A stretch of DNA of 64,000 nt from Escherichia coli (lineage in GTDB: Bacteria; Pseudomonadota; Gammaproteobacteria; Enterobacterales; Enterobacteriaceae). The position numbers and the translations under genes were made by a program. Position 1 is the first letter of the stretch, and each line of letters starts with the position of its first letter. Positions 44,376 to 45,034 of this stretch are shown piece by piece. The notes below the pieces were generated by a model. It made no database searches. It was not told where the DNA came from and saw only the letters and a list, made by a program, of their open reading frames with translations. The stretch lies in assembly GCF_003334335.1 (NCBI RefSeq), contig NZ_QOWQ01000004.1; one strand, given 5' to 3'.

Positions 44376-45034
44376 TAAATCAGCTCCAGATGAATGCGAT
44401 ATGCTTTTAGAGTTACTGGATACAAAAACGGATGTCAACCCTGACGCAATAAAAACGTCCCGCCAGCGTGAGTTCTGCATCCGTAAAATTAGCTAATTGT
44501 GCTGCGGTGGTTAAAGTAAGCGATATTAATTTCTGCTTAACTACCGACGCTTTTCATCGGTTGACATATTTCAGCATAAATTTTTGCATCTAATCAACGA
44601 GGAAAAAGGGGACAAAATGCACGCGTTGCAAAACCTATCCTGATGATTTGTATTGAATTATATGTTTTGCGATTTTTTTTGATATTGATTTGGTGAATAT
44701 TATTGATCAATTAATGTTAAGAATTAATGCATTAAATATATAAATTAATTATTAAATAAGCACATTTAATCCATTTTGTAGATGATTGAGTATTCGCGGT
44801 AGTTATGATTAGATTGTTTTCGCAACAAAAACATTATGGATTATTATGCTGTGGTAAATGACTCATTCCACGGCAATGGATTCTGTTTTTATCAGAACCC
44901 GTATCTTTATGTTTTCCGAATTTTACTCATTTTGCTTTTTCTTATTTTATATGCATGATAAATCATATTCTTCAGGATTATTTCTCTGCATTCCAATAAG
45001 GGAAAGGGAGTTAAGTGTGACAGTGGAGTTAAGT

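Follow-up and report, generated by a model that had tools for sequence, protein, structure and literature searches.

Genes and features of the leuL/leuO region

The window (the whole stretch of Escherichia coli DNA that was analysed, 64 kb long) contains the leader gene and first structural gene of the leucine operon on one side of an unusually AT-rich spacer and the regulatory gene leuO on the other. The genes and the spacer between them are as follows:

42625-44196, minus strand: leuA, GC 0.530 (RefSeq annotation of an identical copy)
44289-44375, minus strand: leuL (RefSeq annotation of the identical stretch)
44376-45034: leuL/leuO divergent intergenic spacer, 659 bp, GC 0.329 (annotation of identical E. 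coli DNA)
[quoted passage not shown]

Past leuO the RefSeq annotation of the identical copy gives yabR and then ilvI. Many E. coli chromosomes match the segment 44200-45100 with 100% identity, and it is present in 5400 of 5426 complete genomes. Coordinates in K-12 (MG1655) are obtained by adding 39333 to those of the window.

Base composition and predicted curvature

The sequence-only reading had described an AT-rich spacer of 660 bp between leuL and leuO, far more AT-rich than the flanking genes and containing long A/T tracts, for example at 44640-44830. Its limits proved to be exact, with a length of 659 bp, and the composition bears out the description, since the GC content of the spacer is 0.329 against 0.530 in leuA, 0.457 in leuO and 0.530 in the whole window, and falls to 0.225 within 44640-44830. 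Sliding-window calculation placed the deepest GC depression of the whole 64 kb at this spacer. The 659-bp segment with the lowest GC anywhere in the 64 kb starts at 44374 (GC 0.328; mean 0.530, sd 0.042), and the minima for segments of 434, 200 and 100 bp are 0.279 (at 44566), 0.215 (at 44647) and 0.15 (at 44657), respectively. Nowhere in the window is there a longer unbroken run of A/T than the 29 nt at 44731-44759, also in the spacer. Moreover, A/T tracts of at least 4 nt occur 30 times per kb in the spacer versus 9 in the window, and TpA steps 90 times per kb versus 41.

Among the spacers between annotated genes in the first 50 kb, this one has the greatest length and ranks among the three with the highest AT content. 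In that part of the window the intergenic GC has a median of 0.432 and the pooled coding GC is 0.538; the spacer is thus 10 GC points under typical intergenic DNA. The depression is uneven. The first ~130 bp, which comprise the leuL 5' UTR, the leuL promoter and the DNA just upstream of it, have a GC content of ~0.40-0.45, and the trough proper extends from ~44510 to ~45000. Within leuO the GC content falls again, to 0.385 around 45400-45600. The leuO/yabR spacer (45980-46133, GC 0.312) equals the leuL/leuO spacer in AT-richness, and therefore the low-GC domain, at ~44510-46250, is wider than the leuL/leuO spacer.

The mean predicted curvature of the spacer is in the top 0.1-0.4% of 659-bp segments in three wedge models, and the window-wide curvature maximum lies essentially at the leuL/leuO locus. 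Only the concordance of the three models was counted as meaningful, and on unusually strong predicted curvature all three agree. A search for direct and inverted repeats returned only short AT-rich palindromes and a duplication of GGAGTTAAGT, described below. The spacer therefore presents the features of an H-NS-silenced region, namely low GC over hundreds of base pairs together with A-tracts, TpA steps and predicted curvature.

The leucine operon side

The part of the spacer next to leuL contains elements of the leucine operon and a short conserved element upstream of them:

44240-44389, minus strand: leader/attenuator RNA of the leu operon (Rfam RF00512 Leu_leader, full-length, 145.8 bits, E 1.7e-33)
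44410-44438, minus strand: core promoter of leuLABCD (-35 TTGACA at 44438-44433, -10 TAACTC at 44415-44410, spacing 17)
44489-44504, no strand assigned: sharply conserved 16-nt element TTAGCTAATTGTGCTG (column identity 90-99% in 80 species)

The gathering score of RF00512 is 50 and the leader, at 145.8 bits, is thus a member; the leuL leader peptide contains LLLL. Only the first 14 nt of the leader, at its 5' end, lie inside the spacer and, because the match reaches to 44389, the first bases of the spacer are leuL 5' UTR. This was the sole credible match in an Rfam search of 43900-46400 (E <=1). Matches to MIR2629 in the spacer (18-19 bits) were too weak and were rejected as chance.

Both hexamers of the leuLABCD promoter are 80-99% conserved among the 80 species, and the promoter was missed by a sigma-70 consensus scan because its -10 hexamer is TAACTC. 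Transcription presumably starts at ~44402, a position that follows from the EcoCyc start together with the spacing. It has been reported that LeuO binds leuLABCD promoter DNA and that 2-isopropylmalate enhances this binding (PMC12494820).

The 16-nt element is located ~95 bp upstream of the leuL start and ~50 bp upstream of the leu -35 hexamer, and its flanks are unconserved in the same 80 Enterobacteriaceae species. It matches, at 13 of 15 positions, the sequence YAGHAWATTWTDCTR, which we take to be the consensus of Lrp. A literature search for Lrp regulation of leuLABCD found no link. From its pattern of conservation the element probably binds a protein, for which Lrp and LeuO are candidates. 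It has the leu promoter on one side and the H-NS tract on the other, and may serve a boundary or regulatory factor. The best non-palindromic match of the window to the same consensus (14 of 15 positions) is found elsewhere, at 46039-46053 (TAGAATTTTATTCTG) in the leuO/yabR spacer upstream of ilvIH, and it fits the control of ilvIH by Lrp.

Candidate promoters and factor sites on the leuO side

On the other side, several elements were located by consensus and motif scans, by conservation and by mapping of published fragments and sites:

44691-45034: fragment bound by SlyA in vitro (EMSA; primers TC51/TC52 of PMC5797941, mapped here)
44710-44728: 7-5-7 palindrome ATTAATG-TTAAG-AATTAAT, 6 of 7 positions complementary, candidate LeuO core site
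44724-44735: SlyA-like site TTAATGCATTAA (site table of PMC5797941)
44732-44743: SlyA-like site TTAAATATATAA (site table of PMC5797941)
44819-44847, plus strand: candidate distal leuO promoter, sigma-70-like, TTCGCA-17-TATTAT (consensus scan)
44905-44926, plus strand: conserved block with TTTTCCGA at 44912-44919 (conservation 0.8-0.99)
44931-44970, plus strand: most conserved block of the spacer (column identity mostly 0.8-0.99), probable core promoter of P2

The hexamers TTCGCA and TATTAT have also been given for leuO from RNA polymerase SELEX (PMC3946193 Table 1), and 44819-44847 may be the distal promoter, P1. Further downstream, a motif scan showed that TTTTCCGA matches the BglJ-RcsB core wwTTCykA of PMC3950696. 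As the centre of the BglJ-RcsB site is placed 57 bp upstream of the P2 start (PMC3950696), the +1 of P2 would be near 44972. The block at 44931-44970 fits this published distance and, by position and conservation rather than by its hexamers, is probably the core of the proximal promoter, P2.

Site I of LeuO at leuO has been described as a 19-bp palindrome composed of two 7-bp halves 5 bp apart (PMC6698644). The palindrome at 44710-44728, which partly overlaps the conserved block 44704-44722, fits that description and could be the LeuO core site; the comparison was with the published description and not with the published sequence.

Conservation among Enterobacteriaceae

Conservation was assessed from the leuA-leuO loci of 80 Enterobacteriaceae species and an alignment of their spacers. 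The arrangement leuA-leuL-spacer-leuO is present in all 80, with a median distance of 809.5 bp between the starts of leuA and leuO (IQR 794-828). A GC trough upstream of leuO was likewise found in 80 of 80 loci. The minimum 200-bp GC has a median of 0.26 (range 0.19-0.325) and usually begins ~400 bp before the leuO start codon, and the GC content of the flanking leuA stays at 0.51-0.58 across the 80 species.

Column identity is low in the AT core, at 0.2-0.5. The sharply conserved blocks of the alignment are 44489-44504, 44704-44722, 44786-44816, 44905-44926, 44931-44970 and 45003-45030, some of which coincide with published elements. These short blocks, now mapped, are the best candidates for factor-binding sites, and the factor named for each of them is the one that we infer from motif and position. 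The fact that the trough and the spacer length are kept while the sequence turns over argues for a maintained composition, against recent import or simple drift.

The start of LeuO and the upstream open frame

The leuO frame is open for a long distance into the spacer, and it had been suggested from the sequence that this extension upstream of 45035 is probably not translated. Two features are concerned:

44858-45016, plus strand: long in-frame ORF extension upstream of leuO, non-coding (GC at codon position 1, Shine-Dalgarno search, conservation, profile)
45003-45037, plus strand: tandem translation-start region (direct repeat and conservation in 80 species)

The suggestion holds for 44858-45016, which is non-coding, but the last 18 nt (45017-45034) may be translated. 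The GC content at codon position 1 is 0.27 in 44858-45016 versus 0.58 in leuO, and a search for Shine-Dalgarno sequences before all four upstream ATGs found none. Among the 80 species, the in-frame open stretch upstream of the leuO start is anywhere from 3 to 243 nt long; in other Escherichia it measures 126-168 nt from the conserved core versus 231 nt here. Alignment to the NCBIfam profile of LeuO, NF007063, starts no earlier than annotated residue 10, and including the extension does not raise the score (572.0 against 572.7 bits). The extension thus does not behave as part of a LeuO family protein, its residues being outside NF007063 and its open frame unconserved. In addition, the P2 start (~44972), as placed above, is downstream of all four upstream ATGs.

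Immediately before leuO a short module occurs twice. GTG 45017 comes after AAAGGGAG and the annotated ATG 45035 after GTGGAG; the two codons share a frame and are 18 nt apart. The sequence GGAGTTAAGT is found both at 45007-45016, before the GTG, and at 45025-45034, before the ATG, and the Shine-Dalgarno of GTG 45017 (AAGGGAG) is stronger than that of ATG 45035. A start codon is present at the equivalent of 45017 in 73 of the 80 species (GTG in 58, ATG in 15) and at the equivalent of 45035 in 72; the upstream start stands alone in eight, including Kluyvera and relatives, and the downstream start alone in seven. The block AAAGGGAG...GTGACAGTGGAGT is conserved above the level of the first leuO codons. 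The six codons between 45017 and 45035 are conserved at all three positions, as would be expected if they were also the ribosome-binding site of the second start. Translation of LeuO could then begin at GTG 45017, or at both codons, through the duplicated GGAGTTAAGT and start module, giving a form of 320 aa or two isoforms. We regard this tentatively, at somewhat less than even odds, and together with the conserved 16-nt element at 44489-44504 it is one of the minor leads of the present analysis.

Public annotation gives three N-termini for LeuO on the same DNA, which should be flagged: 314 aa, 320 aa (GTG start) and 373 aa (full ORF extension). The 314-aa protein is annotated on at least 1000 contigs, the 320-aa on 101 and the 373-aa on 28. 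The records of 373 aa are mostly from Shigella, IMG and older GenBank entries, with some from E. coli, and they are very likely over-extensions.

Silencing by H-NS

Two further features, one published and one defined here by composition, bear on the role of the spacer:

44565-44990: published 'promoter island' 83898_426 leuL/leuO (MG1655 83898-84323; PMC3661553 Table 1)
44640-44830: AT core with the 29-nt A/T run, GC 0.225, likely H-NS nucleation tract by analogy

The claim that this is the H-NS-silenced promoter region of leuO, made from sequence alone, agrees with composition and predicted curvature as well as with published ChIP and genetics. The H-NS ChIP evidence used here consists of tables in secondary papers and not of raw tracks, and in those of PMC3661553 and PMC5797941 occupancy is reported for the leuL/leuO tract. 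Table 1 of PMC3661553 carries an 'A' in its H column for 44565-44990, that is, H-NS signal inside the island 'according to all studies' (Grainger, Kahramanoglou, Oshima), and Table 2 of PMC5797941 marks leuO with G, K and O. Table 1 of PMC3946193 does not give the leuL/leuO spacer its flag for H-NS ('HNS', in vitro genomic SELEX).

The silencing of leuO by H-NS and StpA has been shown genetically (PMC5025477, PMC3950696, PMC6797219), and removal of hns (and stpA) leads to derepression of leuO (PMC5025477, PMC3950696, PMC6698644). From the same three papers it is known that the distal promoter P1 is fully active only in hns stpA mutants, that the proximal promoter P2 is activated by BglJ-RcsB and that LeuO is autoregulated. 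For Salmonella, the site at which H-NS nucleates ahead of leuO has been called well defined, and transcription-driven supercoiling relieves leuO silencing (PMC6797219, PMC10981669). A 72-bp AT-rich silencer of Salmonella, as mentioned in PMC6797219 and, after Chen et al. 2001, in PMC4264507, provides the analogue by which the AT core at 44640-44830 is likely to be the nucleation tract in E. coli.

The sequence tCGATAAATT, which we take to be the high-affinity nucleation motif of H-NS and to which a match is presumably not required for binding, was not enriched: with up to two mismatches, the spacer has 2 matches (44703, 44737) versus 2.5 +/- 1.6 in composition-matched shuffles. In a consensus scan for sigma-70 promoters and terminators, the spacer had a single promoter-like site versus 3.2 +/- 1.9 in shuffles. 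The region was listed as a promoter island by PlatProm (PMC3661553), an algorithm that differs from a hexamer scan, and the promoter density of an island was thus not reproduced by a crude scan, which found fewer sites than in shuffled sequence.

We propose that leuLABCD and leuO, which diverge from each other, are both controlled from this spacer. The 65 bp at its left end would consist of the leuL 5' UTR and the leuLABCD promoter, and the remaining ~500 bp of an AT-rich, A-tract-rich tract with predicted curvature. On this tract H-NS and its paralogue StpA would nucleate and then spread along it, and the resulting filament over the leuO promoters, distal P1 and proximal P2, would hold leuO off in ordinary growth. 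The filament would be opened or remodelled by LeuO, by BglJ-RcsB at P2, by SlyA and by LrhA via sites inside the tract, and supercoiling from transcription at neighbouring promoters ('promoter relay') would counteract silencing too. The silencing, the in vivo H-NS occupancy, the two promoters, the activation by BglJ-RcsB, the autoregulation and the SlyA binding that enter this scheme come from the literature; our own computations gave the composition, the predicted curvature, the finding that the trough and discrete blocks are conserved, and the non-coding status of 44858-45016. To the explanation as a whole, a divergent control region in which an H-NS/StpA filament silences leuO and specific proteins and supercoiling counteract it, we assign a probability of about 0.92.

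The central claim, an AT-rich control region between the leucine operon and leuO that H-NS keeps off, is correct and already known, indeed textbook knowledge; what is added here is the conservation of the trough and of the spacer length in 80 species and the strong predicted curvature in three wedge models. LeuO is a master antagonist of H-NS that switches on CRISPR-Cas, efflux pumps, the bgl operon and virulence genes, and for this reason the DNA that silences leuO matters for the understanding of those responses.

Other explanations of the AT-rich tract may be considered. If leuO and its upstream DNA were a foreign island not yet drifted, the binding of H-NS would be incidental to a horizontal leftover. 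leuO has indeed been flagged as overlapping a GIST 'genomic island' (PMC5797941 Table 2, PMC3661553 Table 1), and its GC content is below that of its neighbours. Nevertheless the arrangement, spacer length and GC trough shared by all 80 species indicate that the locus is ancient and core, leuO has been called 'core genome' (PMC6797219), and a low composition retained despite sequence turnover speaks of maintenance and not of a decaying relic; we therefore hold an imported origin to be very improbable. Very improbable to the same degree is ordinary non-coding drift, in which mutational bias would make the DNA AT-rich and weak promoters, not H-NS, would account for the silence. It would agree with the generally higher AT content of intergenic DNA relative to genes (values above) and with the lack of enrichment of the specific H-NS motif. 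A GC content of 0.22-0.28 over several hundred base pairs is, however, far under that of the other intergenic regions of the window, the trough lies at the same position and at a conserved distance in 80 species and encloses discrete blocks that are 80-99% conserved, and the published derepression in hns stpA mutants refutes drift as an account of the silence.

The spacer might also code for protein, either as a 59-residue N-terminal extension of LeuO from ATG 44858 or as a small ORF such as 44468-44593 on the plus strand. The frame is open from 44858 through to the leuO ATG, several GenBank and IMG records of Shigella and E. coli give LeuO a length of 373 aa, and transcription from the promoter predicted at 44819-44847 would begin a short way before ATG 44858. 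Yet besides the low GC at codon position 1 (0.27), the predicted extension peptide is rich in Phe, Ile and Ser, like translated AT-rich non-coding DNA. Moreover, the upstream ATGs have no Shine-Dalgarno, the open stretch is as short as 3 nt in some species, the profile score is not raised, and all four ATGs precede the probable P2 start. As to the small ORF, the conserved block within 44468-44593 is conserved at all three codon positions and has unconserved flanks, which is the pattern of a DNA site and not of a gene, and this ORF was rejected as a gene on that ground. A coding role for the spacer is thus hardly credible, the least so of these alternatives, and silencing by H-NS remains the preferred explanation.

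Comparison with known systems

The closest likeness is to the leuO upstream region of Salmonella Typhimurium, an orthologous locus with alike gene order, spacer length and GC trough. There H-NS nucleates on an AT-rich element and spreads in cis, LeuO acts both as a barrier and as an antagonist, and supercoiling is coupled to leuLABCD and ilvIH. A 72-bp AT-rich silencer, 'AT4', and the promoter-relay system were reportedly described in Salmonella by Chen, Fang and Wu between 1998 and 2005. The AT core, however, is only partly alignable between Salmonella Typhimurium and E. coli, and the E. coli-specific activator BglJ-RcsB has been characterised only in E. coli.

The bgl operon of E. coli is similar in having an AT-rich promoter silenced by H-NS and StpA and in being activated by LeuO, by BglJ-RcsB and by IS insertion into AT-rich regulatory DNA (PMC3950696, PMC9678765). 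It differs in that silencing involves DNA looping and a second H-NS site, which lies within the gene. Moreover, bgl is a cryptic operon that not all E. coli carry, whereas the leuO region belongs to the core and shows conservation across the Enterobacteriaceae.

The tract at 44565-44990, bound by H-NS and transcriptionally quiet, is also among the 78 promoter islands that Shavkunov, Ozoline and co-workers list for E. coli. These authors tie the islands to horizontally acquired genes, but the leuO island lies in an ancient syntenic locus, and a plain -35/-10 scan of the leuO tract shows no excess of promoter-like sites. Within the window, the other long and very AT-rich spacer is the divergent caiT/fixA spacer (2599-3069, GC 0.312), the other deep GC minimum of the window; PMC3946193 Table 1 marks it with H-NS sites. 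With 471 bp it is the shorter of the two, and its regulators are different.

Variation within E. coli

The AT-rich core 44560-45000 diverges by up to ~5-6% within E. coli, with 1152 genomes at 90-95% identity and Nissle 1917 at 94.6%. Thirty-seven of 5395 complete E. coli genomes do not have this segment intact. Three independent IS1 events were found in the AT-rich tract of natural isolates, strains 23CRST017 and NT1F10 being among the carriers: in one isolate the insertion has a 9-bp target duplication corresponding to 44721-44729, in one it lies at 44815-44822 and hits the -35 hexamer predicted for 44819-44847, and in one IS1 stands in place of 44537-46201 and leuO is lost. A classic way for a gene silenced by H-NS to become active is insertion of an IS in its upstream DNA.

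Finally, a contig labelled Chryseobacterium sp. 18061 (CACSKA010000010.1) carries a typical enterobacterial leuA-leuL-leuO locus, with a LeuO identity of 77%. This locus is nearly the same as that of a contig of 'Citrobacter sp. 18056', and the assembly is probably mislabelled or contaminated.
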